From an uncultured Candidatus Saccharibacteria bacterium (lineage in GTDB: Bacteria; Patescibacteriota; Minisyncoccia; Phycocordibacterales; PALSA-1337), in assembly GCA_964600255.1 (NCBI GenBank), contig CAZRIX010000001.1, forward strand, positions 43,948 through 107,947: a DNA stretch of 64,000 nt, written 5' to 3'. This document shows positions 3,885-49,305 of this stretch, in pieces. Below the pieces are notes generated by a model. That model ran no database searches and had not been told where the DNA came from. It was given only the letters and a program-made list of their open reading frames with translations. How positions within the stretch are numbered: the stretch's first letter is position 1; every line of letters begins with the position of its first letter. The translations under genes were made by a program, and so were the position numbers.

Positions 3885-3888
3885 ATAA

Positions 3889-5382
3889 ATGTACTGGGCA
3901 AACTTTCTTCACATATATCAGCCAGCAAACCAGAGGAAGGATGTAATAGAAGCTGTTATTGCACAGTGTTACCGTCCACTACTTAAACATATACAAAAAT
4001 CCAAGCATGTAAGACTGACTTTGAATATAAATGCATCACTAGTTGAGCAATTCTACGAACATGGTCATCATGATCTCATCGAAATTCTAAAGGAAGTTGG
4101 ACTCGAAGGTAGAGTCGAGTTTACAAGTTCTGCAAAGTACCACGCATTTCTACCCCTGCTATCTGAAGATGAGATAGTACGTCAGATAAGGATGAATGAT
4201 GAGACAAACAAAAAGTATCTAGGTGACGCCTACAAGCCTGTAGGTTTCTTTTCACCTGAAATGGGATACTCTGAGAAACTACCGGCAATAATAGAAGCCT
4301 TGGGATACAAATGGATGATACTGGATGAAATCTCTGCATTCGGAGAGACTGAAAAGGTTGATCATGCAAAGATCTATAAAATAAAGAATACAAATGTTAA
4401 TGCTTTTTTCAGAGAAAGAAGAATAAGTAACTTAATAATGAGTGCCGTAGTTCGTTCTAGAGAGACACTTATAGAGGCAATGAAAGATGATTTGAAAACA
4501 AATAGGTACTTGATAACAGCGATGGATGGAGAGACATTCGGTCATCACAGGCCTGGCTTGGAGAAAATGCTATTTAAAGTATTTGATACACCAGAGTTCA
4601 ACTTGGTTACAATTTCAGATCTACAAAAACACTATCACGATATTGTAGAAATAGTTCCTGTAAAATCAACATGGGCAAGCAGTAAGCAAGATATTGATAG
4701 AGGTGTTCAGTTTCTATCATGGCATGACCCCTCAAACATCATCCATAGCTGGCAGTGGCAACTTATAAATCTAGTGGGGGCTCAGGTTAAAAAAGTTGAT
4801 ACGAAGGACCCAAAATACGAAGAAATCAGAAAGAAAATGGATCGTGCGCTAGCAAGCGATCATCTATGGTGGGCATCAGCGAAGCCTTGGTGGAGTGTTG
4901 AAATGATAGAGGATGGAGCGTTCAGATTGATAGAGACAATACGACTCATTCCAGGAGTAAGCGATACCGACCTAAGTGCTGCAAGTAAGCTATATGAGAA
5001 TATAGTATCGACCGCTTTTGATTGGCAGCGTTCAGGAAAAATATACCAGATGATGCAAGAACAGAATTCAATACTCAGAATTCCCTTCTTAGAAAGGACA
5101 GTTGGTAAAGGTGGTGCTGAGGTTGGTGTATATCATGCAATTATAAGTCTTATGAAAGGTCTCGAGGAGAAAGCAATAGAAAAGCGTGAATACGAGCAAG
5201 CAATACTTTGGAGAGATGCGATGTACAAACTAGAAAACAAGCTCGATATATACGATACAGTAAACGCAATTGACCTAATGAGAACCCATATTCCGAATGA
5301 TGAAGTTGAGAAGGTTATCGAAATGTACAAGGAAAAGTATAGAGAAATACGAGGTGGTCAAGTTGAACAAAGGGGATCATAA
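3889..5382 (+). CDS. GH57-family glycoside hydrolase (alpha-glucan branching enzyme or amylase type)
   Basis: N-terminal HIYQP motif. Downstream DGETFGHH catalytic region is typical of GH57. Confidence 0.7.
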   Translation: MYWANFLHIYQPANQRKDVIEAVIAQCYRPLLKHIQKSKHVRLTLNINASLVEQFYEHGHHDLIEILKEVGLEGRVEFTSSAKYHAFLPLLSEDEIVRQIRMNDETNKKYLGDAYKPVGFFSPEMGYSEKLPAIIEALGYKWMILDEISAFGETEKVDHAKIYKIKNTNVNAFFRERRISNLIMSAVVRSRETLIEAMKDDLKTNRYLITAMDGETFGHHRPGLEKMLFKVFDTPEFNLVTISDLQKHYHDIVEIVPVKSTWASSKQDIDRGVQFLSWHDPSNIIHSWQWQLINLVGAQVKKVDTKDPKYEEIRKKMDRALASDHLWWASAKPWWSVEMIEDGAFRLIETIRLIPGVSDTDLSAASKLYENIVSTAFDWQRSGKIYQMMQEQNSILRIPFLERTVGKGGAEVGVYHAIISLMKGLEEKAIEKREYEQAILWRDAMYKLENKLDIYDTVNAIDLMRTHIPNDEVEKVIEMYKEKYREIRGGQVEQRGS

Positions 5383-5421
5383 TACAATTATTTAATTTTA
5401 AATAAATTCACTCACAAGCAA

Positions 5422-7038
5422 ATGTGGTTAGACAAATTCAAGAAACCAGAAAACTATAAAGGATTTAGAAAGGAACCAGTAGCGTATTTTTGTGCTGAGT
5501 ATGCCCTCTTTGACCATACACCACTTTATGCAGGTGGACTTGGTATTCTAGCTGGAGACTATGTAAAAGAAATGGTAAAAGAAAACATGCCTGCCGTAGC
5601 GGTAGGCCTTTATTACCACAAAGAACATGAACACGGGCTTGATTTGAATAGAGAAAAAAAGACACCTACAGATCTGGGATTGAACTTAGTGAAAGATTCA
5701 AATGGGAATGTAGTCAAAATACCCATCCTACTCGGTGAAAGAACCGTCTATGTTCAAGTATGGAGCTGGAAAAAGAGTGAGTTGAACCTATACCTTCTGG
5801 ATACTCAAGTCGCTGAAAATAGTCCTATTGATTGGGATATTTGTGACTATCTATACGTGGAAGATAGAAATATCAGACTTAGACAAGAAATTATTCTAGG
5901 TATAGCCGGAGTTAGACTGCTTAAAGTTTTGGATATCAGACCATCAGTTTTTCATATGAATGAAGGTCATTCAGCTTTTCTAGCGTTTGAATTGATACGA
6001 CATGAGATGAAGAGTAGGAATATTGATTTCAAGACTGCGGTAAACTTTGCAAAACAGCGCATTGTTTTTACAAACCATACACTAGTTCCTGCTGGTCACG
6101 AATTGTTCAATATTGACACCATAAAAGATGTGGCGGCTGGATTTGCCAAAGATCTTGGGATTGATATAAACGAACTAGTTCAACTAGGATTCAATAGTGA
6201 GACAAATATGTTCTCTATGACGGAATTGGCTTTGACACTATCTACTAAGGTAAATGCAGTGAGTAAATTACATGCAGTTAAAGCGAAAGAAGTTTGGAAA
6301 TCTCATGAAGTGGAAGTAGTTACTAATGGTATATACGTAGATGATTGGGATCAATTGAAACACTATAGCCACAAGGAACTGAAGAGAAAACTGATAGATC
6401 ATGTTAATACAAATTGCGGAGTAAACTTCAGTGAAGATATATTAACACTTGGTTGGGCTAGGAGATTCGTCGATTACAAGAGACCTTTAGCGATTCTAGG
6501 AGACGTTGAGAGACTAAAGAAACTAGGGAAAGTTCAGATTGTATTTTCTAGTGCAATAAATTCTACATATTCCGAGGAGAATGAATACTATAAAGAACTT
6601 TTAAAGCTAAGCGAAAACGAACTTAAAGGTATGGTAGCTATTATTCCAGACTACGACATACATGTTGCAAAACTGATGACTTCTGGTTGTGACGTATGGC
6701 TCAATACTCCAATAGTTGGCCGCGAAGCTTGTGGTACAAGTGGAATGAAGGCCTGCCTAAATGGTGTACTACCCCTATCAACAAGTGATGGATGGGTTGA
6801 TGAAGTTGATCTAACTGATATTGGTTGGAAGGTAGAGGATGGAGAGATAACAAAAAACCTACTAGATGCATTAGAAAAAGAGGTTATACCTGAGTACTAT
6901 AACAATCAGGAAAGTTGGACAAGGAGAATGCGTAAGTCTAGAGAATTAATCGTGCGTGGCTTTGGAATGAATAGAGCCCTAAAGGAATATATCAACAATA
7001 TATACTTGCCAATATACAATACTAGGAAAAATAACTAG
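5422..7038 (+). CDS. glgP: Alpha-glucan (glycogen/maltodextrin) phosphorylase, GT35
   Basis: FCAEYALFDHTPLYAGGLGILAGD N-terminal signature. EACGTSGMKA pyridoxal-phosphate lysine motif. Confidence 0.8.
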   Translation: MWLDKFKKPENYKGFRKEPVAYFCAEYALFDHTPLYAGGLGILAGDYVKEMVKENMPAVAVGLYYHKEHEHGLDLNREKKTPTDLGLNLVKDSNGNVVKIPILLGERTVYVQVWSWKKSELNLYLLDTQVAENSPIDWDICDYLYVEDRNIRLRQEIILGIAGVRLLKVLDIRPSVFHMNEGHSAFLAFELIRHEMKSRNIDFKTAVNFAKQRIVFTNHTLVPAGHELFNIDTIKDVAAGFAKDLGIDINELVQLGFNSETNMFSMTELALTLSTKVNAVSKLHAVKAKEVWKSHEVEVVTNGIYVDDWDQLKHYSHKELKRKLIDHVNTNCGVNFSEDILTLGWARRFVDYKRPLAILGDVERLKKLGKVQIVFSSAINSTYSEENEYYKELLKLSENELKGMVAIIPDYDIHVAKLMTSGCDVWLNTPIVGREACGTSGMKACLNGVLPLSTSDGWVDEVDLTDIGWKVEDGEITKNLLDALEKEVIPEYYNNQESWTRRMRKSRELIVRGFGMNRALKEYINNIYLPIYNTRKNN

Positions 7039-16082: not shown

Positions 16083-16970
16083 ATGGACATTAGTTTTAAC
16101 AAGGAAACCAACGTTTTGAGATGGACCCCAGTTCTATTAACAGATCGATATGTAGTGAAGATGGAAGGTGGAACTGCTCCAGATGACTGGACTAATGAGT
16201 ACTCAGTCCCTGAAACAGTAACCGGCATTAAACTAGTTGAATCGGCGTACTGGGGCAACATCAAGGAAACTGGTGCGAAGATAACCATCACTGCGCTCGA
16301 TGATAGTAGGAGCACTCTGGATACTGTCGACATCAACATTACCATCCCGAAGCAGAAGTGGCACCAGGGAGCGGCCGTGAGGCTGTTCATGCTACTGGCG
16401 GTCCTACTCGGCGCTTGGGCGTCATACTCACAGTACAAATTGGGTAAGGCCAATGACGTTATGGCTGAGCGGGATGAAGCAAAAACACTTCTTGCTGCTC
16501 AGGTGACACTGACAGCAGACTGGAAGAAGGCACACGACAAAGCTACCAACCAGCCAGTTGTAACATTGTACGAAACCAATGTGGTAACGGTGCCTGTGTA
16601 CGAGAAGATCAAAGTCTACGACATCCCGCAAGGGATGCCGAAGGCTGGACCAGCGACGAATGATACGTTGGTCCATTACTTCTCGCCTACCAACCAGCAC
16701 ACGGTGACGAAGTTCATCACCGATGGAGATGGGACTATGTTCCTCACTCCAAACGACTGGCAGATCAACTGCCTGGTCTACGGTAACGTGGCCGATTTCG
16801 ATCGGCTCGTGAACATCGGGGGACTTACCAACCCCCACTGGATCCATTACGGACCAGGAACAAAACTTCCAGAGGCGACCAAGGTGGTCGCATATTGGAT
16901 TAGAAACCGAGTGCAGAACTCCCACCTCAAGGTGGAGTTCGTGCTCACACCCGTCGCCTCTACTCCATAG
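16083..16970 (+). CDS. Hypothetical membrane protein (single central TM) in the high-GC island
   Basis: 295-aa ORF with RBS AGGAGA. GC ~50%. Central hydrophobic helix AAVRLFMLLAVLLGAWASY. No recognisable motif. Confidence 0.5.
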   Translation: MDISFNKETNVLRWTPVLLTDRYVVKMEGGTAPDDWTNEYSVPETVTGIKLVESAYWGNIKETGAKITITALDDSRSTLDTVDINITIPKQKWHQGAAVRLFMLLAVLLGAWASYSQYKLGKANDVMAERDEAKTLLAAQVTLTADWKKAHDKATNQPVVTLYETNVVTVPVYEKIKVYDIPQGMPKAGPATNDTLVHYFSPTNQHTVTKFITDGDGTMFLTPNDWQINCLVYGNVADFDRLVNIGGLTNPHWIHYGPGTKLPEATKVVAYWIRNRVQNSHLKVEFVLTPVASTP

Positions 16971-16990
16971 CAAAGCGCGACCGGCAAAGG

Positions 16991-17025
16991 GAGCCTGGGA
17001 TTTTATTCCAGGCTCTTTTCTTTTG
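16991..17025 (+). terminator. Intrinsic terminator
   Basis: GAGCCTGG-N9-CCAGGCTC perfect 8-bp stem followed by TTTTCTTTT. Confidence 0.65.
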
Positions 17026-17069
17026 TGTGTTTACTAAATAATTTAAAGATTTTTAAAGCATAATTACCA

Positions 17070-17182
17070 TTGACTTTTCATTTAAAATGTGCTAATATAT
17101 TAGGAGAGTTAGAAGGCCAAGTACTCTGACACGCTGTAGCGTGGAGGGAGGAAAGGAAGAACTTTGACAACAAGGATAATTC
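17070..17182 (+). promoter_or_regulatory. Consensus-like sigma70 promoter plus conserved structured leader, copy B
   Basis: TTGACT at 17070-17075, 17-nt spacer, TAATAT at 17093-17098. The hairpin ACGC/GCGT sits where copy A has CCGTGC/GCACGG, which is a compensatory change. Confidence 0.6.
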
Positions 17183-18112
17183 GTGAAAAAACTATCATAC
17201 GAGTCGCAATTTTGGAGATTAGTCGTCTCCATCATGTCACTGCCCATAACGATGTACGTCATCTACAAGGTCGTATACACGGTTGTTGTATTCATGCGAT
17301 TCGATCCATCGGTGGCCGAGAAGTTAGCGAACTGGGTAGGCCTACCGGCCTCCTGGTATATCTACTTCAAGTTCCTACTCGAACGGTTCTGGATTGATGT
17401 AGCACTTGAAGACGTGGTCCTAGAAGATTCCTTCAGTTTCCGGAACAGGAAGGTCGGTGATCAAGCAGACCCATTGGCTTTGCCGAGTGGTCTGAGGTCA
17501 GTTGGTGGACCAGGGTTCAGAGCGAAGGGTTTCTTTGAGACCGTCAAGACGAGATTACCTGTAGTATCTAAAGAGAAGAATGGTGGCCTCGAAGTCGACG
17601 ACAAGCAAACGAACACCTTCAACGTCAGTTACTCCATGACATTTACTAGGGTCAGGGGTAAATTCTCTGTGATTGGTTCAACCTACAAAGAGGAAGAGGC
17701 AGTTAAAACCCTCGAAGCCATCGTTGAGGCGCGAATTGAGGAATTATTCGCAAACGAGCAGGATGGTAGGAATATCCGGGCTTCACTTGATAAACGTAAC
17801 GAGGATCTCTCTAAGGTCCTCGGCGGCGATCGAGATATCAGCACCGAAGAGATTCGTTGTGGGTTCTTCATAACAAAACTTCGAATCAAGACGGTTGATG
17901 AGGCTGCAGCAACAAAACAGCGTAACCAGACCCAAGCGCTGGCAACAGCTGTGAATTCTGCAGCAGATGCTCTATCAAAGGGTATCGGGGCTGGAGCAGA
18001 TCCAAACCTTATTATGGCCCTTGCTGCAAGTGCAGCTGGGGTTAAGGGTGACGGAGTTAAAGTGAGTATAGTCAAGGGTCTCGAGAAAGGCGGCACATAC
18101 AACGTAAGTTAA
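17183..18112 (+). CDS. Membrane protein with weak SPFH/band-7-like features (GTG start)
   Basis: N-terminal TM helices. Central region and Ala/Gln-rich C-terminal helix loosely resemble stomatin/HflKC organisation. Unknown function. Confidence 0.4.
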   Translation: MKKLSYESQFWRLVVSIMSLPITMYVIYKVVYTVVVFMRFDPSVAEKLANWVGLPASWYIYFKFLLERFWIDVALEDVVLEDSFSFRNRKVGDQADPLALPSGLRSVGGPGFRAKGFFETVKTRLPVVSKEKNGGLEVDDKQTNTFNVSYSMTFTRVRGKFSVIGSTYKEEEAVKTLEAIVEARIEELFANEQDGRNIRASLDKRNEDLSKVLGGDRDISTEEIRCGFFITKLRIKTVDEAAATKQRNQTQALATAVNSAADALSKGIGAGADPNLIMALAASAAGVKGDGVKVSIVKGLEKGGTYNVS

Positions 18113-18113
18113 C

Positions 18114-18554
18114 ATGAACACCACACTTCTCAAAAAACTGGCGTGGTATGGGCCAATCGCGGCGATACTAATCGCTACGATGTTCTACATCCGATCCTAC
18201 AACGGGTCAGAAAAGAAGGTACAGCACGTCCCTGTCACTGGCGGTGGTAAGGCTTCGGCAACCACCACAATCACGATCATCAAGGGGGCAACTCCTAGGA
18301 TGATCGATTACCCACATTTCTCCCGGTTCAGATCGGGAATTGTGGAAGATGACGTTGCGTACGTCATACACATCAATCTCGTCGGTCGGCCTGACCATGA
18401 GATTGAAAAAATATTCGTACCTGCCAGAAACGACAGACCGAGCAATTGGTCTGATCCGCTCGCAGGCAAGAATATTGCGAGGATCGGGTTTACGCTCGAT
18501 CCTTCCTCGGCCAAGGATATTGGCCACATCGAGTACGTAGTCGAGAGGCAGTAG
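18114..18554 (+). CDS. Hypothetical membrane-anchored protein, probably co-transcribed with 17183..18112
   Basis: ORF begins 2 nt after the upstream stop. N-terminal TM. High GC. Confidence 0.45.
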   Translation: MNTTLLKKLAWYGPIAAILIATMFYIRSYNGSEKKVQHVPVTGGGKASATTTITIIKGATPRMIDYPHFSRFRSGIVEDDVAYVIHINLVGRPDHEIEKIFVPARNDRPSNWSDPLAGKNIARIGFTLDPSSAKDIGHIEYVVERQ

Positions 18555-18580
18555 ATAATACCACCACTCGAAAACGGCAA

Positions 18581-18608
18581 AGGGGGACCCTATGGGACCC
18601 CCTTTTAC
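18581..18608. terminator. Bidirectional intrinsic terminator between the island and the pilin array
   Basis: GGGGGACCC-TAT-GGGACCCCC hairpin with an A-run upstream and a T-run downstream. Confidence 0.6.
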
Positions 18609-18636: not shown

Positions 18637-18966
18637 CTACTGGAATGGATCAGTAACACCCACTGGTGCAAGTGTACTGACTATAACCCTAATTATCCCA
18701 TATGCCGATACCATGATGAACATTCCCGCCGCACTCCAGAATATACTTCTCTTGCCGTCTTCTCTTGCATCAGAATCCTCCTGACTCGCAATCATTTTGA
18801 ATATGCCGTACACAAATGTTACAAAAGACAGTAGGAACATTACACCAAGAATCGGTGTGATTATGTTCAAAGCAATACTATCTAGAAAACCACGTATAGT
18901 GGGGTTCTTCGATAGAACTTGTGACGCAGACTGTGCGTGAGCAATGTTTATCAAGCTAATCATCAA
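18637..18966 (-). CDS. VirB2/TrbC-like two-TM pilin-family protein, paralog 1
   Basis: Signal peptide ending AHAQS. Hydrophobic helix, short Asp/Glu/Arg-rich loop (QEDSDAREDGKRS), second hydrophobic helix. Confidence 0.5.
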   Translation of the reverse strand: MMISLINIAHAQSASQVLSKNPTIRGFLDSIALNIITPILGVMFLLSFVTFVYGIFKMIASQEDSDAREDGKRSIFWSAAGMFIMVSAYGIIRVIVSTLAPVGVTDPFQ

Positions 18967-18973
18967 ATTGGAT

Positions 18974-19345
18974 TTATGGAATCTGTGGTGGTGGTGGAAG
19001 CTGAATGTTGTTTACCTTGTCTGTTGGAAGATTGTTTTGTCCAAACTGGAATGAGTTTGTTAGAAGATATACAAGTCCCCAGATTGATAGGATTGCAAAT
19101 AGACCTATAACTCCATAAAGTATAGCCTGTCCCCCCTTCTTACGAGCTTCCTCATCATCACTACCTGCGATTAGGTATCTGACAACACTGATTATGATCC
19201 ATAGAACTGCAAATGAGATAGCTAGTCTAACGAGCAAGTTACCAATATTTGTTGCCTTCATTGCAACAGAGTTGATGTCATTTAGCTGTTGAGCAAATAC
19301 AAGCGTAGGTGAAAATGCGATAATGGCTGCGATTATTTTTTTCAT
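18974..19345 (-). CDS. VirB2/TrbC-like two-TM pilin-family protein, paralog 2
   Basis: Signal peptide ending VFAQQ. TM. AGSDDEEARKKGGQAILYGVIGLFAIL loop and TM. ~75% identical to paralog 3. Confidence 0.55.
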   Translation of the reverse strand: MKKIIAAIIAFSPTLVFAQQLNDINSVAMKATNIGNLLVRLAISFAVLWIIISVVRYLIAGSDDEEARKKGGQAILYGVIGLFAILSIWGLVYLLTNSFQFGQNNLPTDKVNNIQLPPPPQIP

Positions 19346-19423
19346 GATAATATATTATTTAATAACTACTAAATTATAACAGTTTAAAGGTTTAGCAACA
19401 AATGGGCTGTGGATACGAGAATG

Positions 19424-19795
19424 CTATATATTAGAATTAATCGTAGGGTCCTGTATTCTCAAATTGTTAAAATTTGGTCTTTGATCTTCAGAGAATCTAA
19501 ATGTATTTACTAGAAGATATACCATTCCCCAAATAGACAAAATCGCAAATAGACCAATAACACCATAAAGTATAGCATCACCACCCTTCTTGCGAGCATC
19601 CTCATCGTCACTACCTGCGATTAGGTATCTGACAACATTTACGATTATAAATACTACAGCCAGTGAAATTGCTAACTGGATTACAAGATTACCAATGTTT
19701 ACACTCTTCTGCGCCACATCATTAATATCTCGTAGCTGTTGTGCTGATGCAAATGCTGGAAATAGGATTGTTGTTAGAGTAAGTATTTTTTTCAT
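19424..19795 (-). CDS. VirB2/TrbC-like two-TM pilin-family protein, paralog 3
   Basis: Same architecture. Loop AGSDDEDARKKGGDAILYGVIGLFAIL. Confidence 0.55.
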   Translation of the reverse strand: MKKILTLTTILFPAFASAQQLRDINDVAQKSVNIGNLVIQLAISLAVVFIIVNVVRYLIAGSDDEDARKKGGDAILYGVIGLFAILSIWGMVYLLVNTFRFSEDQRPNFNNLRIQDPTINSNI

Positions 19796-19802
19796 ATTTT
19801 AT

Positions 19803-20411
19803 TTAATTACCTGATGGGTCCGAACCTGTAGCACCGGATTCTGATGGTTGTGTACCACCAGTACTAGGTGACCCACTCGGAGAGTTTGATGTACTACCAG
19901 ATCCGCTACCATTTGAATTCCCTGTTGCTGGCGATCCGCTTGGTCCATTGAAAACATTACCTGAACCGCTTGGAGGGTTTGTTGTTCCACTAGTGCCACT
20001 TGAAGGGTTTGTTGTAGCTCCACTCACACTTGGAACTGTATTACCACCAGATGTACTGCCACCACCGCCATTGAAATTCACAAATGATGGTACGGTTCCT
20101 GGTTGTCTACTATCTAACTGTAGTGTATTAGTAAATATTGCGACTATTCCCCAGAACGAAAGTATTACAAAGAATCCAATTACACTGAATAATACGTACT
20201 TACCTGCTTCAGTTCTGTCCTTTTCAGTAAAGAAGTAGATGAATACATTCCAAACAAACACCACAACGGCAAGACCTATGATCAGTGATAAGGCTATGTT
20301 TAGATATTCAGCTACTAGACGCGCTAGATCCTTCAGTGACTTGCCCTGCGCAAAAGTAAAACCGGGTAAAAGTAGTGTTAATAGTAATAATTTGCTTTGT
20401 AATTTATTCAT
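19803..20411 (-). CDS. VirB2/TrbC-like two-TM pilin-family protein with Gly/Ser/Thr/Pro-rich C-terminal tail, paralog 4
   Basis: Signal peptide. TM. TEKDRTEAGKYVLFSVIGFFVIL loop and TM. Then a ~100-aa low-complexity GSTPN tail. Confidence 0.5.
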   Translation of the reverse strand: MNKLQSKLLLLTLLLPGFTFAQGKSLKDLARLVAEYLNIALSLIIGLAVVVFVWNVFIYFFTEKDRTEAGKYVLFSVIGFFVILSFWGIVAIFTNTLQLDSRQPGTVPSFVNFNGGGGSTSGGNTVPSVSGATTNPSSGTSGTTNPPSGSGNVFNGPSGSPATGNSNGSGSGSTSNSPSGSPSTGGTQPSESGATGSDPSGN

Positions 20412-40956: not shown

Positions 40957-41032
40957 GCGCGGTTAGCTCAGTTGGTAGAGCATCCCCTTGACGTGGGGAG
41001 GGTCACAGGTTCGAGTCCTGTATCGCGCACCA
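40957..41032 (+). tRNA. tRNA-Val (GAC), CCA encoded
   Basis: 76-nt cloverleaf GCGCGGTTAGCTCAGTTGGTAGAGC...ACAGGTTCGAGTCCTGT...CCA. Anticodon loop UUGACGU. Confidence 0.85.
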
Positions 41033-42085
41033 ATGATTACATTAGGAATCGAAACAAGCTGTGATGAAACAGCACTATGTTTACTTGAATCAAGCGATAG
41101 TGACCGTGATGTTAAATACCGTGTACTTGGCAACATCGTTCACTCTCAAATAGATTTACATCGTGAATTCGGTGGTGTCTTCCCTATGCTTGCCAAAAGA
41201 GAACACATTAAGAACCTTCCAATTTTATATAAAAAAATAATCGAAGATAGCGGTGTCGATGAAGGCAATATAAACAGAATCGCTGTCACAAAGGGCCCTG
41301 GTCTTGAACCTGCTTTGTGGACTGGAATTCTTTTTGCAAATGATTTGGGTAAAAGACTGAACATACCGGTAATCCCTATAAATCATATGGAGGGTCACAT
41401 CATGGCTTCTTTGATATCAGATTCAAAAGCTAGTAGTGAATTTCAAATGTTAAAAGAAATCCAGTACCCAGCTCTGGCCCTACTTATAAGTGGTGGTCAT
41501 ACAGAAATTGTAAAAATTCACGAACATCAAAAATTCGAAATACTTGGTAGTACGGTAGACGATGCAGTTGGTGAGGCGTTCGATAAAGTAGCCAGAATGA
41601 TGAATCTCCCATATCCAGGTGGGCCAGAGATTTCAAGGCTTGCGGAACAGGCTCGTAAAGAGAATATACCGAATCTAGTCACTCTTCCCCGCCCAATGAT
41701 TCATTCCAAAGATCTTAGATTCTCTTTTTCTGGACTCAAAACTGCGGTTCTTTATGCACTAAAAAAGATTGAGAATCTAGATGAAAATCAAAAGAAAGAT
41801 ATAGCTCGAGAATTTGAAAATTCTGTTACCGAAGTTCTAATATCAAAGGTTAAGTTGGCTATAGAGGATAATGAAGTAAGAACGCTAATAATAGGTGGTG
41901 GTGTGATCGCCAATAAATACATTAGAGAAAATTTTGAGAAGTTGGCAAATGAGAGTAGTTTACCTCTATACCTACCTGGCGCTGGATTGACTGGAGATAA
42001 TGCACTAATGATAGCACTCGTTGGAGCAATAAAACCCTCTGATAGTCATGAGGGCTTTAGAGCTGAAGGAAATTTGTCTTTTTAG
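41033..42085 (+). CDS. tsaD: tRNA N6-adenosine threonylcarbamoyltransferase TsaD (Kae1/YgjD family)
   Basis: MITLGIETSCDETA N-terminus (GIETSCDxT). HMEGH metal motif. The ORF-track start at 40988 overlaps the tRNA, so the ATG at 41033 is preferred. Confidence 0.8.
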   Translation: MITLGIETSCDETALCLLESSDSDRDVKYRVLGNIVHSQIDLHREFGGVFPMLAKREHIKNLPILYKKIIEDSGVDEGNINRIAVTKGPGLEPALWTGILFANDLGKRLNIPVIPINHMEGHIMASLISDSKASSEFQMLKEIQYPALALLISGGHTEIVKIHEHQKFEILGSTVDDAVGEAFDKVARMMNLPYPGGPEISRLAEQARKENIPNLVTLPRPMIHSKDLRFSFSGLKTAVLYALKKIENLDENQKKDIAREFENSVTEVLISKVKLAIEDNEVRTLIIGGGVIANKYIRENFEKLANESSLPLYLPGAGLTGDNALMIALVGAIKPSDSHEGFRAEGNLSF

Positions 42086-42102: not shown

Positions 42103-45100
42103 CTATTTTCCAAATAGTAATTTCAATATCTTAAGGAAATATGTCTTTGTACCTACAACAATAGCTGATGTCACCTTTGAGATCGTGCCTTTATTACCTT
42201 TTACTGCAGTTTTGTTAGCACCAGCATCATTCTTTGTACTTGAGACAACCCCTATTAATCCTGTAGCCTTCTTAGATACTACACTCGTCCCTGACTCACT
42301 AGCTTTTACTTCCTTAGAATTTTTTGAACTTTCTAGTGGCTTTAATGTTGGCGCCTTTGTGACTGGGTCCGGCACAAGACTTGCAAATGGTGAGGTTAAC
42401 TGCCTTACAAAATTAATTGCTTTATGTGGATTTACAGCGGTCACAATAGCAGCTACTGGAGTTACAATCTCAGGTTCTGGATTGTATATAGTTATAACTA
42501 CACTTGTTGTTGCGAAGTTATTTGATGAATCGCGTGCTACAGCATATACAGTATAGCTACCATCAGCATAACTAGTACTATTGAGAGAAGTAAAATATGG
42601 ACTAGCCACATCCTCCACTCCCAAATATACTCCATCAATCATAAATCGAACTCCAGCTAGCGATACATTATCTACTGCAGATGCAACTATACTTACCGCA
42701 TTTCCAGATACCACTTCAGCGTTAGCTGGAGATACGATGGAAATAACAGGGGCAGTTATGTCTGGCACAATATTTGAAACCGTAATACTTACCGATGTTG
42801 TCGCATAGTTATTTGATGAATCCCGGGCAACCGCAGTGACAACATAATTACCATTTGCAACTGAAGTACTGTCAAAAGATATTGTGTATGGACTACTTGT
42901 ATCTTCTGATCCAAGATTTACATTATCGAGTTTAAACTGTACCCCTGCGACAGCTATGTTATCTGTTGCTGTAGCGGCAATGCTGTAAGAGCTTCCTGAG
43001 ACCGTAGCGAGGTCTGTAGGTGATGTAATAGATACAACTGGATCTGTAGTATCGGGTATTACAACTGCCAAAGCAGAAGCCATATTAGAATTACTTGTTC
43101 CACTAGCATCAACTAGTCTTATTCTGTAATAATAATCAATTCCATCGGAAATATATGGATCAGTAAATGTTGTTGTACCCTCTGGCACCAAATCTGAAAC
43201 TATGTTTTGAGTAAATAGGAAATTCGTAGCTCTATCTACATACAACATATGTGATGTTGTAGCATTGTTTGTCCAAGTCAGATCAACTTGATTTGCTCCT
43301 CTAGTAGCATCCAAACTTGTTGCAGCTGGAGTCAAACTTACTGATGGGAATACATCATCTAGATTCCAACTACTGTTCCATGAAATAGACATCGTATTGT
43401 TTGTTGGGAATGTCAAAGGTAACCAAACATGTCTACTGTTATACAATGATCCAGCGAGATTATTACTATAATCAAATCTATCTCCGATATAAATATATGC
43501 ATCACCACGTCCAGGTATATGCTCTATATCCGTTGTCTGGGAACGGTAAGCAATCATTCTATCTTCCTCAACACTAACCTGGAATGGATTTACAAGTGGT
43601 GACCAATTGCCCATAACACTCGTTGAGGTTGAATATTTATTCTCGTTTGGAGCCCATCCTGTTAGTCCAGATGTAAGTAGGAAGTACACACCATTTCGAA
43701 GTATCATCTGAGGACCCTCACGACCAATCAATACATTTGGTCTAACATATGTTCCAGAAGTGGTTAGATAATCATCTGATAGTTTTGAAATAACGAAATG
43801 CGTATTCGGACCGTCTGAGTATAGTAGATATCCTGATCCATCAGTATCCTTAAATAGGTTCATGTCGTTTAGATAGAATCCATCTGGGTTGTAAGATGAT
43901 GAAGCAATAGTGAATGCCCCGTATGGTGTGTCGTTGTAAGCAACCACTGCTGTAGATTTTCCGGATGCGATAACTCGGTGACCCCATAGTACGTATTTTC
44001 CAGTCGTGGCGTTATATAGCACGTGTGGTCTTTCTATCATATAACTTCTACCGAGATAAATAACAGGACCTTCATCTTTCCAATTTATCAAATCACTTGA
44101 TGAGTAACATGATATACCTACTGCTTCGATTTCTGGATCGTTTGCATTAAAAATCTGTCCGTACCAATAGTACTTACCGTTAAAGAATTGTATTTCTCCA
44201 TCATGTGACTCAATCAAATGGTTATCAGTATCTAACCAATCCTGTCCTGGCTTAAAATCGATATCGAACCAATATCTAGATTGAGGCGAGACTTCAGAGA
44301 CGAACATGCCATCACTTATAGCTATAGATTGAACTGTGGATGATGCACTCAGTACAAACGGTGCAGTGTATAGTACCGTTGTACCTTGTGGGACTCCGTC
44401 TACTACACTAGGAATACTACCGTCAGTTGTATAGTAAATAGATGCGTTGGTTGTGATACTAGAAAGTCTTACTCTAATTGGTTGTGCATACTTTCCTCCA
44501 TTTGGCGAAGCTGTAGGGTGAACAGGGGTATATGGAGTGGTTGTGCCAGGATTTCCAATCAATCTAAATTCGGCTAGGTTACCGTAGTTTCCATCTGGCA
44601 TAACTAGTCTGTAAAATCTGTATGCACTACCGCCGGCGTCGATAGCAATCTCACTCATCTGTCGCTGAGCATAATACGGAGGATATGGTTGTATTGTGTG
44701 TATAGTTGTCCAAGGTCCAGTACTAGAACTGACATTTGCTCCTTGCAGATATGCACCGTAAACTTGAACTGTGTATCCTGGTCTTGGTGCAATCTTCATT
44801 CGCGTTACAACAGCTGGTGCCTTTAGATCAAGGCCAACTAGAGAACCGTTTGCACTTTGAGAATCCCACCATGTAGAAGTATTGCCGTCATATACCTTTG
44901 AGTAAACATTTCCACTGTTATTGTAACTTCCTGGAGTTCCAAACTGGTATGCAGGTGAGATACTAAACTGTATTTCTCCAGTTGAAGTCGCTACCGGACA
45001 TGTTGCGGTGGTCAATGTCCTGTTTGGTCCATATGAAGTACCAGATAGGTTTATTGTATATGCTCTGAAGTTATAGACGGTAGCACATGATAGACCACTT

Positions 45101-48100
45101 ACTGTTAATGAGTATGGACCTACTGGATACAATCCAGTTTCAGTAGTTGTAGCTCCATAAGCGGAGTTTAGACCATACTGAAAACCTCTGGCTGTAGAAC
45201 TTGCTGCTCCGTCGTTTGTAATATTACCATTTAGTATTGCAGTGAAGCTTGTCGTTGAACTAGCTGCGGATGTAGTGATTGTTGCAGGCATAGAGTTATT
45301 CACGATCACTCCAATTGATGTAGACGTACTTACATTCCCTGTTGCATCCGCAGCAACAACTGAAATTGTATGATATCCATCTGCTACTGAAGTTGAATTC
45401 CAACTGATTGAATATGGTGATGTAGTTCCAGACGCACCTATACTAGTATTGGTATCAATTTTAAACTGTACACTTCCTATTCTCACGTTATCAGAAGTTG
45501 ATGCTGTAAGAGTTACGCTCGATCCTGTTAATGTTGAGCTGGCTGTTGGGACTACAATTGCTGTAGTCGGAGGAATTGTGTCAGCCAAAACTGTTATGGT
45601 TGTAGATGCGCCAGAATCTGGAGCCGTGATCCTCAATGTACCAGTACTACTACCAGCGGATACGGTGATGTTGGCACTGGTAGAGCTTGATACTACTTGT
45701 GACGTTATTGCTGCACCTGTACCACCACTTATTCCAAATGTAGGCGAACCGGGCGTACCAGAAGTCCAGCTGGTTGCATTTCCAGTCAGTGTTATCACAT
45801 TATTTATTGAGTTCTGATATATAGTCGGAGTATTGGCAGAAACAGTAATCTGGGTGTTTATTAGATTGACCAGAACGTCAGTTGATGTACCTACGTTGCC
45901 TGAAGAGTCGGTAACAATTACTCGTATATTATGAGGACCATCAGCAATACTTGCTGAATTCCATACTATTGAATACGGCGATGTTGTTCCAACCGCGCCG
46001 ATGTTTGTATTATCTACCTGAAACTGGACTGAACTTACACTAGTATCATCACTTGAAGTTGCCGTTAGAGTAACATTACCCAAAAGGTCTGCACCGTTTA
46101 CTGGAGACGTAACTGTTCCGGTTGGTGGAGTAACATCGGCTGATAGCAGGAAATTCGCGATAGCTGTTGTAGAGTTTGAAGTACCTGCAGCAGTCACAGT
46201 TCTGATTCTGTAGTAATATCTAGTATCGTTCACAATGTCAGTATCTACAAAATTTGAAATGGTAGTTGTTGCTCGTATTGAAATAAAGTTTTCAGTAAAA
46301 ATATTGTCAGTTGCCCTATCGATGTACAACTCATAGGAGTTCGTCTCATTATTAGTCCAAGACAGATTCACAGTCAGAGCATTCTTGGTTGCTGTGAGAC
46401 CGGTTGCGGCTTGTGTTGGTATAGAGGTTGTAAAAGCCTCGTCCAAAGTCCAGCCTGGATTCCAAGAGATCGACATGGTGTTGTCGGTTGGAAATGTAAT
46501 AGGTAAAAATAAATATGTACTATTGTATAGCGAGCCACTAGCCGTTGCTGAATTATCAAACCTATCTCCCAAATACATATACCCTTCGGTCCTGCCTTGG
46601 ATGGTTAATATGCCAGATGTATGAGATCTGTAAGCGATCGTATTATCTTCAGTTGCACTTGATTGAAAAGGATTAACTAGTGCAGAAAATGTACCCAGAG
46701 GACTGGTTGATGTTGAATATTTATTTGTTGTAGCAGTCCAACTATTTTGTCCACTATTTAACAAAAAGTAAACTCCATTTCTCTTTACCATTGCTGGCGC
46801 ACTTCTATTTGCATTCGCAGCTGAAATATTGGAAACACCAGACATACCTTCGTATGTACTATCTAGCTTGGAAATAATCATTTTAGAATTATCACTAGAT
46901 GTGTAAATTATGTATGCCGTACCATCTGTATCTTTAAATAGGTTGAGATCGTTCAATCCTAGGGCATCAGGATTAAGAGATGTGGTAACAACCCTAAACG
47001 GCCCGTATGGCGTACTTGATGTTGCGACTATTGCTCTAGAGTTTGTTACGTTTCTTGCCCACATAACATACCTACTTGTAGTAGCGTTATATATAACGTG
47101 TGGTCTTTCTAGTATATATGATGTATTTACATTAAAAACCAACCCCTGACTAGTCCAATTTACTAGGTCGGATGATGTATATAAGTTAACACCAAGTTTT
47201 TCCAACTCAGGTGAAATATTGTTCATTGACTCACCGTACCAGTAATATTTTCCATTGAAATAACTTATACCACCAGTATGTGCGTCTATGATATTGCCGT
47301 TATTGTCATGCCACGTGATTCCAGATCGGATTGCGGGATTGATGAAAAAATACGCTGGATTTGAAACCTCTGAGACATATGTATTTGCACTTACAGCAAT
47401 ACTTTTGATAGTCGTTGTTGCTGTTGTAGTTGCCATGAATGGACCTGTGTACAGACGAGTAGTACCTTGTGGTGAACCTCCACTAAAAGTTGGTGTCGTA
47501 CCATCGTTTGTATAATAAATAACTGCGTCCGTGGTTGAACTAGTAATAGTTACTTGAACTGGTTGTGCAAACTTTCCACCCATAGGACTAATCTTTGGGA
47601 CAACTGGTACGTATGGAGTCGTACTTGAAGCAATACCAATTAGTCTCATTTCTCCTAGAGATCCGTAGGCACCGTTTGGCATGACTAGGCGGTAATATCT
47701 GTAGAACAATCCACCAGTATTTATTGGTATTTCAGAAAATTGTTTCTGAGGATAGAACGGAGGATAACTAGGTATTGTATAAATCGTTGTCCAAGGTCCT
47801 GTAGAAGAACTCACGGTTGCACCTTGGAAAACAGCGCCATGTAGTCTAACCGTGTATCCTGTGCGTGGTGCTACCCACAGTTTTGTAACTTGCGCATTTA
47901 CAGTTAGATCCAATCCTACGTTTGAACCATTGGCAAAAGACTGATTGGCATCCCACCAACTAGTCAAATCTCCATCGAATACTTTGGCAATCGTGTTTCC
48001 GTTATTGAAATAACTTCCAGCTGTTCCTATTTGATATTGTGGAGCAATACTAAACTGAACTTCTCCTGTTGCTGCATATATGATTATAGGGTAAACAAAG

Positions 48101-48183
48101 GCGGAGATGAGCAAAAAGATTACTATGAAAAAGTGATCTTTAATCAACTTTTTTACTGCATAGTAAAATGTGCTCTTTTCCAT
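42103..48183 (-). CDS. Giant (2026 aa) secreted or surface protein with two tandem discoidin-like plus GH43-like beta-propeller modules, then FN3/Ig-like repeats
   Basis: N-terminal signal anchor. Two copies of an F5/8-type-C-like domain (DGDLTSWWDA / DGNTSTWWDS). Two clan GH-F propeller units (NGKYYWYG, SSDL.NW, ERPHV.YNATT..YV.W). Lys-rich C-terminal tail. Confidence 0.6.
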   Translation of the reverse strand: MEKSTFYYAVKKLIKDHFFIVIFLLISAFVYPIIIYAATGEVQFSIAPQYQIGTAGSYFNNGNTIAKVFDGDLTSWWDANQSFANGSNVGLDLTVNAQVTKLWVAPRTGYTVRLHGAVFQGATVSSSTGPWTTIYTIPSYPPFYPQKQFSEIPINTGGLFYRYYRLVMPNGAYGSLGEMRLIGIASSTTPYVPVVPKISPMGGKFAQPVQVTITSSTTDAVIYYTNDGTTPTFSGGSPQGTTRLYTGPFMATTTATTTIKSIAVSANTYVSEVSNPAYFFINPAIRSGITWHDNNGNIIDAHTGGISYFNGKYYWYGESMNNISPELEKLGVNLYTSSDLVNWTSQGLVFNVNTSYILERPHVIYNATTSRYVMWARNVTNSRAIVATSSTPYGPFRVVTTSLNPDALGLNDLNLFKDTDGTAYIIYTSSDNSKMIISKLDSTYEGMSGVSNISAANANRSAPAMVKRNGVYFLLNSGQNSWTATTNKYSTSTSPLGTFSALVNPFQSSATEDNTIAYRSHTSGILTIQGRTEGYMYLGDRFDNSATASGSLYNSTYLFLPITFPTDNTMSISWNPGWTLDEAFTTSIPTQAATGLTATKNALTVNLSWTNNETNSYELYIDRATDNIFTENFISIRATTTISNFVDTDIVNDTRYYYRIRTVTAAGTSNSTTAIANFLLSADVTPPTGTVTSPVNGADLLGNVTLTATSSDDTSVSSVQFQVDNTNIGAVGTTSPYSIVWNSASIADGPHNIRVIVTDSSGNVGTSTDVLVNLINTQITVSANTPTIYQNSINNVITLTGNATSWTSGTPGSPTFGISGGTGAAITSQVVSSSTSANITVSAGSSTGTLRITAPDSGASTTITVLADTIPPTTAIVVPTASSTLTGSSVTLTASTSDNVRIGSVQFKIDTNTSIGASGTTSPYSISWNSTSVADGYHTISVVAADATGNVSTSTSIGVIVNNSMPATITTSAASSTTSFTAILNGNITNDGAASSTARGFQYGLNSAYGATTTETGLYPVGPYSLTVSGLSCATVYNFRAYTINLSGTSYGPNRTLTTATCPVATSTGEIQFSISPAYQFGTPGSYNNSGNVYSKVYDGNTSTWWDSQSANGSLVGLDLKAPAVVTRMKIAPRPGYTVQVYGAYLQGANVSSSTGPWTTIHTIQPYPPYYAQRQMSEIAIDAGGSAYRFYRLVMPDGNYGNLAEFRLIGNPGTTTPYTPVHPTASPNGGKYAQPIRVRLSSITTNASIYYTTDGSIPSVVDGVPQGTTVLYTAPFVLSASSTVQSIAISDGMFVSEVSPQSRYWFDIDFKPGQDWLDTDNHLIESHDGEIQFFNGKYYWYGQIFNANDPEIEAVGISCYSSSDLINWKDEGPVIYLGRSYMIERPHVLYNATTGKYVLWGHRVIASGKSTAVVAYNDTPYGAFTIASSSYNPDGFYLNDMNLFKDTDGSGYLLYSDGPNTHFVISKLSDDYLTTSGTYVRPNVLIGREGPQMILRNGVYFLLTSGLTGWAPNENKYSTSTSVMGNWSPLVNPFQVSVEEDRMIAYRSQTTDIEHIPGRGDAYIYIGDRFDYSNNLAGSLYNSRHVWLPLTFPTNNTMSISWNSSWNLDDVFPSVSLTPAATSLDATRGANQVDLTWTNNATTSHMLYVDRATNFLFTQNIVSDLVPEGTTTFTDPYISDGIDYYYRIRLVDASGTSNSNMASALAVVIPDTTDPVVSITSPTDLATVSGSSYSIAATATDNIAVAGVQFKLDNVNLGSEDTSSPYTISFDSTSVANGNYVVTAVARDSSNNYATTSVSITVSNIVPDITAPVISIVSPANAEVVSGNAVSIVASAVDNVSLAGVRFMIDGVYLGVEDVASPYFTSLNSTSYADGSYTVYAVARDSSNNFATTSVVITIYNPEPEIVTPVAAIVTAVNPHKAINFVRQLTSPFASLVPDPVTKAPTLKPLESSKNSKEVKASESGTSVVSKKATGLIGVVSSTKNDAGANKTAVKGNKGTISKVTSAIVVGTKTYFLKILKLLFGK

Positions 48184-48285: not shown

Positions 48286-49305
48286 TTATTTGTAACCGAA
48301 AATCCACTTTACAAATGACCAAATCTTTCCGAAGAATGATGTATTTGCTAGTGCGGCTGTCTGATTGTTACCGTTTGTACCTACTTCAGGAGAAAGTTGA
48401 ATTGTACCTGTAGCGTTTGTGCCGTCCTCTGCTGAGATGATTCCATTATCAATTGAGTTCTTGTATGCCTCTATTGTCGCCAACTGTGCAGCTGACAATG
48501 TTAGGTTTGTTCTACAATATATTTCATTTACCTTCTTCTGAGTTGTGTAGAATACTTCTCCTGTTGGAGTTGTAACTCCCCAAGGTGCCATAGTATCATT
48601 TACATACTTTGCCTGGAATGCCTTTACAGCATCTAGAGTCTTCTGATCAAACTGTCCGTTTATATCTACGTCTAGCTTCTCAGTATTCTTTAGGAATGAC
48701 TGTAGCTTTGTAACCTCAGCAGAATTATTGTTACCACCGAACTTTAGGAAAGTTGTTAGATAAGAACAATTTGCTACTGGAACAATAGTTGTAAAGTTAT
48801 TCAATGGTGCTGGACCTGATCCACCTGATGAACCACCAGAAACCTGGTTTCCGTTTGAAGAACTTCCACCATCTGTATTTGTATCTACTGGGGCTGGACC
48901 TGATGTATTCCCGTTATCTACTGTAGCTGGAGCTGGAGCATCAGCTGTTGTACCGTTTGATACTGTAGCTGGTGCTGAAGTGTTTCCATTATTTACTGTA
49001 GCTGGGGCACTTGTATTACCGTTATTTACAGTTGCTGGAGCTGCTGCATCTGCTGTAGTACCGTTTGATACTGCAACTGGTGCTGAAGTATTTCCATTAT
49101 CCTGTGTTGCAGGAGCACTTGTATTACCATTATCAGCTACTGATAGCTGTGTAGCAGTTGTGTGGTTTTCCACAGTTGCTGGAGCTGCAGTCGCTGTATT
49201 TCCATTATCAGCTACGTTAATGGCAAACGCTGGTGTTATAAACACAGCAAATGTCAGAACCGTAATTGACAGTAAACTTAGGCTTATTTTGATGTTTTTT
49301 GTCAT
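48286..49305 (-). CDS. Secreted protein with Asn/Gly/Thr/Ala tandem repeats and a C-terminal peptidoglycan-binding (PG_binding_1-like) domain
   Basis: Signal peptide. ~10 copies of the NGNTSAPATV-type repeat. C-terminal ...GGNNNSAEVTKLQSFLK...GQFDQKTLDAVKAFQ pattern. DNA-level tandem repeat at ~48880-49200. Confidence 0.55.
   Translation of the reverse strand: MTKNIKISLSLLSITVLTFAVFITPAFAINVADNGNTATAAPATVENHTTATQLSVADNGNTSAPATQDNGNTSAPVAVSNGTTADAAAPATVNNGNTSAPATVNNGNTSAPATVSNGTTADAPAPATVDNGNTSGPAPVDTNTDGGSSSNGNQVSGGSSGGSGPAPLNNFTTIVPVANCSYLTTFLKFGGNNNSAEVTKLQSFLKNTEKLDVDINGQFDQKTLDAVKAFQAKYVNDTMAPWGVTTPTGEVFYTTQKKVNEIYCRTNLTLSAAQLATIEAYKNSIDNGIISAEDGTNATGTIQLSPEVGTNGNNQTAALANTSFFGKIWSFVKWIFGYK

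Follow-up and report, generated by a model that had tools for sequence, protein, structure and literature searches.

A giant secreted protein from a patescibacterial contig carries two paralogous GH43_24 propellers, one predicted to be active and one predicted to be non-catalytic

Exo-β-1,3-galactanases assigned to subfamily 24 of glycoside hydrolase family 43 (GH43_24), such as BT3683 and BT0265 of Bacteroides thetaiotaomicron, Ct1,3Gal43A of Clostridium thermocellum, and Pc1,3Gal43A of Phanerochaete chrysosporium, have a five-bladed propeller in common, and the known enzymes are 300–530 amino acids (aa) long, with one catalytic domain accompanied by a CBM13, a CBM35, or no carbohydrate-binding module (CBM) at all. 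The subfamily is devoid of the Asp base of other GH43 subfamilies (PMC7939473). In Pc1,3Gal43A, Glu208 is the catalytic acid, Gln263, as imidic acid, has been proposed as the base, and Asp158 modulates the pKa; Glu102 reads the axial O4 (C4-OH) of galactose, Glu57, Arg103, Tyr126, and Trp229 complete subsite −1, and substitution of Glu102, Glu208, or Gln263 left no detectable activity (PMC7939473). The protein described here comprises 2026 aa and is encoded on the minus strand of a 64,000-nucleotide stretch (hereafter, the window) of contig CAZRIX010000001.1. Unlike the enzymes named above, it features two propellers, combined with CBM62-like, CHB_HEX_C, FN3, and Big_7 domains. Identity of its propellers to the solved GH43_24 enzymes amounts to ~23–32%. 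The C-terminal propeller (copy 2) shares with them the Glu acid, the Gln base, the Asp modulator, and the Glu/Arg/Trp residues holding galactose, but deviates from them by Gln in place of Glu57 and Ser in place of Tyr126, whereas the N-terminal one (copy 1) is without acid and base.

Three further systems are close to parts of this protein. The closest solved relative of the N-terminal domain of both its modules is CtCBM62 (2yb7, 5g56), which is located at the C-terminal end of the cellulosome-borne GH5 arabinoxylanase CtXyl5A of C. thermocellum, whereas the domain in the window precedes a GH43_24 propeller and belongs to a bacterium of the candidate phyla radiation (CPR). Giant ‘immunoglobulin-like domain-containing proteins’ of Paenibacillus (WP_138754449.1, WP_224725110.1, and WP_141503110.1) and their unnamed metagenomic relatives, 1.5–4.3 thousand residues long, resemble the window protein in carrying two or three GH43_24 propellers with Ig-like spacers between them. 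However, nearly all of their propellers keep acid and base, so that they look like true multi-enzymes, and their second copies represent another sub-type (Tyr/Thr/Gly at position 57 and Ala/Ser/Gly at position 103), whereas the CPR copies go back to an internal duplication of their own, comprising a whole unit of ~770 aa. Finally, the GH18 chitinase-like lectins are catalytically dead glycosidase folds serving as lectins; like copy 1, they lost the acid, preserved their fold along with a large part of the sugar pocket, and remained under purifying selection. They differ in fold and family, and the putatively dead copy of the window protein, for which binding is predicted from the sequence, is fused in-chain to a paralogue predicted to be active.

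Both propellers found their best sequence matches among solved structures in the GH43_24 members 6eug/6euf (BT3683, BT0265), 3vsf (Ct1,3Gal43A), 7bys (Pc1,3Gal43A), 5flw (the Bifidobacterium bifidum exo-galactanase), and 3nqh (BT_2959), with E-values as low as 1e-54 (whole protein) and 1e-44 (copy 1 on its own). The top eight PDB matches were all GH43_24, and other GH43 subfamilies ranked below with much weaker scores. Likewise, the ten best Foldseek matches for both AlphaFold module models were solely GH43_24 (GH43 match probability 1.00); these models were of moderate quality overall (pLDDT 62 and 68), with ~75–95 in the propeller core and values below 50 in the CBM and CHB segments. In Pfam, Glyco_hydro_43 (PF04616) matched two stretches with 101 bits (cut-off 32). 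A search against NCBIfam gave no useful match. Judged by sequence and model, the propellers belong to GH43_24, the subfamily of exo-β-1,3-galactanases of arabinogalactan. An earlier, sequence-only reading of this stretch had named three motifs (NGKYYWYG, SSDL.NW, and ERPHV.YNATT.KYV.W), each of which was indeed found in both copies, the last in the form ERPHV.YNATT.[RK]YV.W. The same reading had discussed the protein in terms of arabinan and xylan and of an Asp/Asp/Glu triad. This framing is inapplicable to GH43_24 propellers, for which β-1,3-galactan is the relevant polymer, and the triad is not the apparatus of this subfamily (PMC7939473); an arabinan or xylan enzyme equipped with it was accordingly rejected. 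The propellers and the two altered positions of copy 1 are located as follows:

46414..47337, minus strand: GH43_24-like five-bladed propeller copy 1, aa 283–590, predicted non-catalytic (PDB sequence matches, Foldseek)
46801..46803, minus strand: Ser461, acid position of copy 1 (residue mapping)
46621..46623, minus strand: His521, base position of copy 1 (residue mapping)
43348..44259, minus strand: GH43_24 propeller copy 2, aa 1309–1612, predicted active (sequence, model, residue mapping)

For the residue mapping, the Pc1,3Gal43A and Ct1,3Gal43A sequences were rebuilt from printed alignments, with one offset fitting all 13 named Pc residues, and were aligned to both propellers of 14 family proteins; copy 1 was scored in 12 orthologues, and 72 single-domain GH43_24 relatives from unrelated, non-CPR bacteria served as controls. 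Copy 2 possesses E1384, R1385, D1440, E1489, W1510, and Q1549 at Pc positions 102, 103, 158, 208, 229, and 263, and this set of residues was invariant among the family members (14/14); Asn180, another galactose-holding position, is likewise kept. Copy 1 retains E318, E359, R360, D412, N432, and W482, carries Ser461 in place of the acid and His521 in place of the base, and shows a gap without any counterpart at Tyr126. Across its 12 orthologues, the acid position (208) is occupied by S/N/D/A/V and never by Glu (0/12), the base position (263) by H/Q/L/I, and the Glu102 position by E/R/T/I. Among the controls, Glu208, Asp158, Arg103, and Glu57 were each kept in 72/72 and Gln263 in 70/72 sequences. 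Since Glu never occurs at the acid position of copy 1, compared to 72/72 controls, this copy appears to be a pseudo-enzyme across the family, and copy 2 appears competent. The absence of catalytic residues from the propellers, which the sequence-only reading had raised as an objection to its own proposal, was thus found for the N-terminal propeller with respect to acid and base, but not for the C-terminal one, which has the full set.

Conservation of the individual domains was compared as mean pairwise identity among ten full-length family members. The N-terminal CBM62-like domain (CBM62_1) was the most conserved domain of the family (68%), followed by the adjoining CHB_HEX_C domain (CHB_1, 66%), the copy 2 propeller (GH43_2, 65%), the second CBM62-like domain (CBM62_2, 60%), and the copy 1 propeller (GH43_1, 58%). 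Lower values were obtained for the Big_7 domains a and b between the modules (47% and 57%), for Big_7 c and d of the C-terminal stalk (26% and 36%), for the region aligned to the tail (33%), and for the signal peptide (21%). In comparison to P0093, a relative with 85% identity, 11.7% of the sites differ in GH43_1 and 2.0% in GH43_2, which is the slowest-evolving domain in this comparison, the copy 1 propeller changing ~6 times faster; four of the five Ig-like/FN3 spacer domains differ at 21–30% of sites, and Big_7 b at 9.5%. Within the sub-clade of the window protein (P0001, P0092, P0093, and P0002), the mappable sugar-holding residues of copy 1 are kept, acid and base alone being changed. This pattern suggests a pocket still able to accommodate a terminal galactose, yet predicted to be unable to cut. 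The core of the copy 1 propeller was, in addition, modelled with pLDDT values of 75–95. On these grounds, copy 1 is regarded as retained rather than decaying, under relaxed but real constraint, and because it is conserved despite the lost acid and base, it resembles a pseudo-enzyme maintained for binding.

Our results also corroborated the internal duplication that had been claimed from the sequence alone. In a self-comparison using BLASTP, aa 38–805 matched aa 1067–1831 with 49.5% identity over 772 columns (E = 0), and a second match related aa 865–974 to aa 1805–1912 (37%). The repeat is larger than had been described: the unit of ~770 aa includes a CBM62-like domain, a CHB_HEX_C/Fn3_assoc domain, the GH43 propeller, an FN3-like domain, and the first Big_7 domain. 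The proposed pairing of a discoidin-like domain with a propeller stood, although the ~88-aa CHB_HEX_C/Fn3_assoc domain between the discoidin-like domain and each propeller had been overlooked. Altogether, the description as a secreted multi-domain protein in which a duplicated carbohydrate-binding and GH43 module precedes Ig/FN3 repeats and a basic tail was confirmed. Pfam detected CHB_HEX_C_1/Fn3_assoc twice (72 and 68 bits for the two stretches) and Big_7 four times (aa 687–756, 872–941, 1715–1784, and 1812–1881); Big_7 domain 2 is flanked by a beta-rich segment (aa 781–870) and an FN3-like segment (aa 966–1066), and the counterpart of FN3-like copy 2 in the homologue P0002 gave a weak fn3 match below the cut-off. 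Apart from the propellers, the gene is organized as follows:

42103..48183, minus strand: whole gene, 2026 codons plus stop, ATG start
48073..48183, minus strand: Sec-type signal peptide, aa 1–37, predicted cleavage IYA|ATGEVQF (hydrophobicity, homologue leaders)
47614..48072, minus strand: CBM62-like galactose-binding domain copy 1, aa 38–190 (phmmer against CtCBM62)
47338..47601, minus strand: CHB_HEX_C_1/Fn3_assoc copy 1, aa 195–282 (Pfam, paralogue mapping)
46129..46413, minus strand: FN3-like domain copy 1, aa 591–685 (51% identical to aa 1613–1710)
45916..46125, minus strand: Big_7 Ig-like domain 1, aa 687–756 (Pfam)
45361..45570, minus strand: Big_7 Ig-like domain 2, aa 872–941 (Pfam)
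44524..44985, minus strand: CBM62-like galactose-binding domain copy 2, aa 1067–1220 (2yb7 match, Pfam F5_F8_type_C_2)
44260..44523, minus strand: CHB_HEX_C_1/Fn3_assoc copy 2, aa 1221–1308, best stretch 1227–1298 (Pfam)
43054..43347, minus strand: FN3-like domain copy 2, aa 1613–1710 (end of the family-wide conserved part)
42541..43041, minus strand: Big_7 Ig-like domains 3 and 4, aa 1715–1881, a stalk variable within the family (Pfam)
42106..42498, minus strand: Lys-rich basic tail, aa 1896–2026 (composition, homologue comparison)

In every homologue, each copy resembles its orthologues more than its paralogue. When set against 72 other GH43_24 domains, copies 1 and 2 formed one clade in 40/40 neighbour-joining bootstraps; a larger run recovered this clade in 27/30, but was rough and gave a numerical warning for very distant pairs, so that the 40/40 run was relied on. 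Recent gene conversion between the copies was rejected, DNA identity between them being just 67–73%, in patches. As deduced from the orthologue grouping, the clade support, and the lack of recent conversion, the whole unit was duplicated once, inside the lineage and before the family diversified.

The discoidin-like domains were compared to CtCBM62 (2yb7; residues 712–842 of 5g56), and matches over ~130 residues were obtained for copy 1 (phmmer, E 1.4e-17) and copy 2 (2yb7, E 4.6e-19). Pfam PF22633 (F5_F8_type_C_2, NedA-like galactose-binding) reached 35.1 bits for the whole protein (cut-off 27.8), with aa 1097–1168 of copy 2 as the sole stretch above threshold, and PF00754 (F5_F8_type_C) remained at 25.0 bits, under its cut-off of 28.2. 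By sequence, the nearest family is CBM62, which is of the same fold class as CBM32 and F5/8 type C, so that the earlier assignment of these domains as CBM32-like needed to be replaced. CtCBM62 binds D-galactopyranose and L-arabinopyranose (PMC5063996). As CtCBM62 binds galactose and GH43_24 represents galactan enzymes, binding domain and catalytic family point to the same sugar, and the CBM62 likeness fits a galactan enzyme.

The reading we favour, and consider somewhat more probable than not, is that of a surface-held exo-β-1,3-galactan hydrolase whose N-terminal paralogue turned into a binding head. Following Sec-dependent secretion and signal-peptide cleavage, a long chain of beta-rich domains would be exposed and probably held at the cell surface, consisting of two paralogous units, each with CBM62-like, CHB_HEX_C, and GH43_24 domains and an FN3/Ig spacer. 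The C-terminal unit would act as an inverting exo-β-1,3-galactanase or β-galactosidase of the BT3683/Ct1,3Gal43A/Pc1,3Gal43A type, with Glu1489 as acid, Gln1549 as base, Asp1440 as pKa modulator, and Glu1384/Arg1385/Trp1510 holding the terminal galactose, and may clip galactose, or side-chain-bearing galactose, off the non-reducing ends of β-1,3-galactan (e.g., type II arabinogalactan). The N-terminal unit, a putative pseudo-enzyme, would serve together with its highly conserved CBM62-like domain as a distal head that binds the ends of galactan chains without cutting them, and the Lys-rich tail with its conserved terminal motif would substitute for the peptidoglycan-binding domain of the homologues as retention device.

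Several observations weigh against this reading, and some of them nourish its rivals. Tail-mediated surface retention is purely inferred, and the AlphaFold models could be used for the propellers alone, the CBM and CHB parts being poorly modelled. Ligand was absent from the catalytic site of the Pc1,3Gal43A variant E208A and present in that of E208Q (PMC7939473); by analogy, binding by the acid-less pocket of copy 1 is plausible, not assured. Two GH43_24 enzymes of Akkermansia had little or no activity on the glycans tested (bioRxiv 10.1101/2024.03.27.586211), so that membership in the subfamily alone is no guarantee of galactanase activity. Furthermore, the Glu57 equivalent of copy 2 is Gln1343, with Gln in 13/14 family members versus Glu in 72/72 controls, and Ser1407 replaces Tyr126, which recognises C6/C4, in the sub-clade of the window protein. 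Because both exchanges affect subsite −1, the specificity of copy 2 may differ, and the active propeller could have been retuned away from β-1,3-galactan to other β-galactosides, L-arabinopyranosides, or a microbial exopolysaccharide. The affinity of CBM62 for L-arabinopyranose and the GH43_24 members inactive on standard substrates would agree with such a shift; however, the galactose-holding Glu102, Arg103, Asp158, Trp229, and Asn180 are all kept, most family members keep Tyr126, and the enzyme is paired with a galactose-type CBM, for which reasons we assign the shift a low probability. A true bifunctional enzyme, in which copy 1 was neofunctionalised by relocated residues or towards another substrate, appears still less probable. 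Purifying selection on copy 1 would be explained by it, migrated catalytic residues are known in pseudo-enzymes (PMC10211241), and many other giants, including those of Paenibacillus, possess two or three catalytically intact GH43_24 domains. Moreover, in four orthologues (P0004–P0007) the acid of copy 1 is replaced by Asp, and residual or altered catalysis is conceivable in these. Against activity of both propellers stand the free variation of the acid, base, and Glu102 positions listed above, which is unlike that of catalytic residues, the presence of Glu208 in all 72 unrelated relatives, and the ~6-fold faster change of copy 1 compared to copy 2 in the nearest relative.

The main rival concerns attachment rather than nutrition as the primary role, two functions that sequence alone cannot separate. 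The protein would then mainly be an adhesin attaching an episymbiotic CPR cell to a partner or host with galactan-type surface glycans, with the CBM62-like domains and the dead propeller as binding tip and the active propeller merely trimming or remodelling the host surface locally. This is consistent with the distal N-terminal binding unit being the best conserved part (CBM62_1 and CHB_1), with the long Ig/FN3 stalk and the wall-binding C-terminus of the homologues, and with type IV pilus genes in the same window. Genes for sugar transport or galactose catabolism adjoin the gene neither in the window nor at the homologue loci, a further point against the preferred reading, and one survey counted on average ~1 glycoside hydrolase per Patescibacteria genome (PMC9765126), so that the protein belongs to no broad saprophytic toolkit. 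On the other hand, nothing in the sequence identifies a host glycan, and the invariant catalytic set of copy 2 (14/14), together with GH43_2 as the slowest domain (2%), points to selection on catalysis; a mainly adhesive role is therefore considered unlikely, albeit the foremost of the alternatives. Judged by sequence, plant or algal arabinogalactan is as much a candidate target as the host or cell-surface glycans proposed in the sequence-only reading. A bolder combination, to which we give slightly less credit than to the adhesin, would be that the dead propeller and the CBM62-like head form the host-recognition tip of a CPR attachment protein, that the active copy feeds on that very surface, and that the Lys-rich tail (whose conserved end, ...FLKI....FGK, recurs in the adjacent secreted protein) represents an undescribed C-terminal retention or sorting signal. 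If true, a Paceibacteria-type episymbiont would latch onto its partner, e.g., an alga or a microbe with a galactan-rich surface.

Irrespective of this choice, a conserved gene of 6 kb, ~1.6% of the 381-kb contig bearing an identical protein, is a large investment for a very small genome and suggests that galactan-type glycans are, for this lineage, a key resource or a key target of attachment. An intact GH43_24 domain and a putatively dead paralogue in one chain would provide a natural example of an enzyme turned binding module, and a simple testable system, since reverting two residues should bring activity back; a probe specific for β-1,3-galactan ends, of use in research on arabinogalactan proteins, could also be derived from it. 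Current understanding is not overturned, as neither the catalytic family nor the binding module is new.

The two-module architecture was found at seven loci only (L001–L007) when one genome per GTDB species was considered, five of them in metagenome-assembled genomes (MAGs) labelled Candidatus Saccharibacteria or Taylorbacteria and two in genomes merely named ‘uncultured bacterium’. The next best matches were single propellers with 29–40% identity in Clostridia, Paenibacillus, Bacteroidota, Actinomycetota, and others, near which no CBM62, CHB, FN3, or Big_7 matches were detected. An exhaustive HMMER search of 1.84 billion representatives revealed 3250 relatives of copy 2. Among the newly listed best matches of these, 17 out of 146 contain at least two GH43_24 domains (four more listed were known family members); the 17 include the giant Paenibacillus Ig-domain proteins, and almost all of their copies keep acid and base. 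Giants with multiple GH43_24 domains are thus not new, and the novelty, as judged from the predicted catalytic states, is the conserved active-plus-dead pair in a CPR-restricted family. A literature search on GH43 or arabinogalactan enzymes in Saccharibacteria or CPR turned up nothing specific. As a separate observation, P0248, P0321, and P0340 (~1000–1250 aa) contain two or three tandem GH43_24-like propellers without equivalents of Glu102, Asp158, Glu208, and Arg103 (Ala at 102, Phe/Val at 158, Ala/Ser at 208, and His at 103); they would appear to form an all-dead and possibly lectin-like branch within GH43_24.

Concerning export, the only strongly hydrophobic stretch of the giant protein is located at aa 9–42, the sole window of the profile with a Kyte–Doolittle value above 1.5. 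Full-length homologues cannot be aligned over their N-terminal ~25–45 residues up to a small-x-small site, after which ATG.VQFS is conserved in all of them. Because the leaders are variable up to this site and the junction after it is conserved, a signal peptide cleaved by signal peptidase I is more likely than the signal anchor assumed in the sequence-only reading. At the other end, the proposed Lys-rich tail is evident from composition: the last 80 aa contain 19% Lys and have a pI of 10.2, versus 1.5% Lys and a pI of 4.7 for the rest of the mature chain. The homologues P0002, P0003, and P0007 carry a PG_binding_1 domain (PF01471) at their extreme C-terminus, and the same domain is among those listed by Pfam for P0004, P0005, P0008, P0010, P0011, and P0013, which argues for wall attachment via the C-terminus with the N-terminal unit distal. 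In the window protein, no PF01471 match was found by Pfam, and the Lys-rich tail occupies the place of the PG_binding_1 domain of most homologues. A sortase (LPXTG) anchor was rejected, as no [LIV]P.[TSA]G motif occurs in the sequence, and so was a C-terminal transmembrane anchor, as there is no hydrophobic window at the C-terminus. The tail differs from that of P0093 at 63% of sites, but the last ~27 aa (42106..42186, minus strand; ISKVTSAIVVGTKTYFLKILKLLFGK) are nearly unchanged.

The adjacent upstream gene encodes another secreted protein:

48286..49305, minus strand: 339-aa secreted protein ending ...FFGKIWSFVKWIFGYK (Asn/Thr/Ala-rich repeats, weak PG_binding_1 match)

It is composed of ~10 degenerate repeats of the (D/N)NGNTSAPATV type followed by a PG_binding_1-like domain, and its aa ~180–265 are 38% identical to the region just before the C-terminal peptidoglycan-binding domain of P0003. 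The giant protein ends ...TKTYFLKILKLLFGK (42106..42186, minus strand), and the upstream protein ends ...TSFFGKIWSFVKWIFGYK (48289..48345, minus strand). Of the 236 open reading frames (ORFs) with 60 aa or more in the window, these two alone have this end motif, which was found in 0/437 ORFs of the other CPR loci; a BLASTP comparison of the tail to the upstream protein gave no significant similarity (E = 7.3), the resemblance being confined to the last few residues. The shared motif may be a C-terminal retention or sorting signal, the wall-binding part present in cis in the homologues may be supplied here by the separate neighbour, and the 339-aa protein is a possible partner of the giant one.

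Otherwise, the giant gene stands alone and converges on tsaD at a distance of 17 bp, and a gene for a sugar-binding protein is located at a distance of 20 kb. None of 12 neighbouring window proteins is encoded at L001–L007, the neighbours differing at every homologue locus, and the contexts of P0004, P0007, and P0011 have no common operon; hence, no polysaccharide-utilisation locus is claimed. Genes for TrmB-family regulators, a kind often responsive to sugars, were observed within ~3 kb of the giant gene in the homologue contigs L081 (16401..17129) and L085 (4579..5397), and none adjoins it in the window. Numbers from a promoter and terminator scan were below the shuffled expectation (15 vs. 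21 and 1 vs. 3.6), and no regulatory claim is made; a hairpin with a 15-nt loop, uncalled in the scan, was seen by eye after the upstream gene.

The ORF at 42103..48183 is real; its ATG follows the preceding in-frame stop after only two codons. Its product is no assembly oddity, because an identical protein (P0001, 100%) exists on a 381-kb contig of a public collection and near-identical ones elsewhere. In an index of contigs, exact look-up gave no result for the giant protein, P0001, or FtsZ, and retrieved the upstream gene alone, on a 1.7-kb Logan contig. GC content of the gene (0.39–0.42) is in line with the window, which represents ordinary chromosome with genes for GyrA, FtsA/FtsZ, LepA, MurJ, ribonucleotide reductase, a class I tRNA synthetase, PilB/PilC, and glycogen metabolism, as well as four tRNAs and the RNase P RNA. 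GyrA of the window is 93% identical to a protein named as that of a ‘Candidatus Taylorbacteria bacterium’, 89% to one of a ‘Patescibacteria group bacterium’, and 87% to one of ‘Candidatus Paceibacterota’. From these identities, the organism was classified as a small-genome CPR/Patescibacteria bacterium, Paceibacteria/Taylorbacteria-like, in agreement with the small genome presumed in the sequence-only reading. The MAGs with close homologues are labelled differently (L001, L004, and L006 versus L005 and L007), as ‘Candidatus Saccharibacteria’ in some and ‘Candidatus Taylorbacteria’ in others; given the GyrA result, some of these public labels are probably wrong.

Some further features of the window deserve mention. 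The ORF of TsaD (40988..42085, plus strand) starts at a TTG inside tRNA-Val (40957..41032), and its Pfam match does not begin before residue 46; the actual start codon probably lies further downstream. A GC-rich island at ~16100..18600 (0.46–0.56 versus a background of ~0.38) contains three plus-strand ORFs (295, 309, and 146 aa) without Pfam match, overlapped by long spurious antisense ORFs, and may be foreign DNA. It is followed at 18637..20411 (minus strand) by four tandem paralogous small membrane proteins (109–202 aa), each of which combines a signal-like N-terminus with two hydrophobic segments; the last of the four proteins has a match to PF18895 (T4SS_pilin) and a Gly/Ser/Thr/Pro-rich tail. 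Finally, a glycogen-type cluster at 2358..7038 (plus strand) encodes a GT5 starch synthase, a GH57 member, and a phosphorylase-like protein with a GT5-like N-terminus, which shows storage or processing of α-glucan by the organism.

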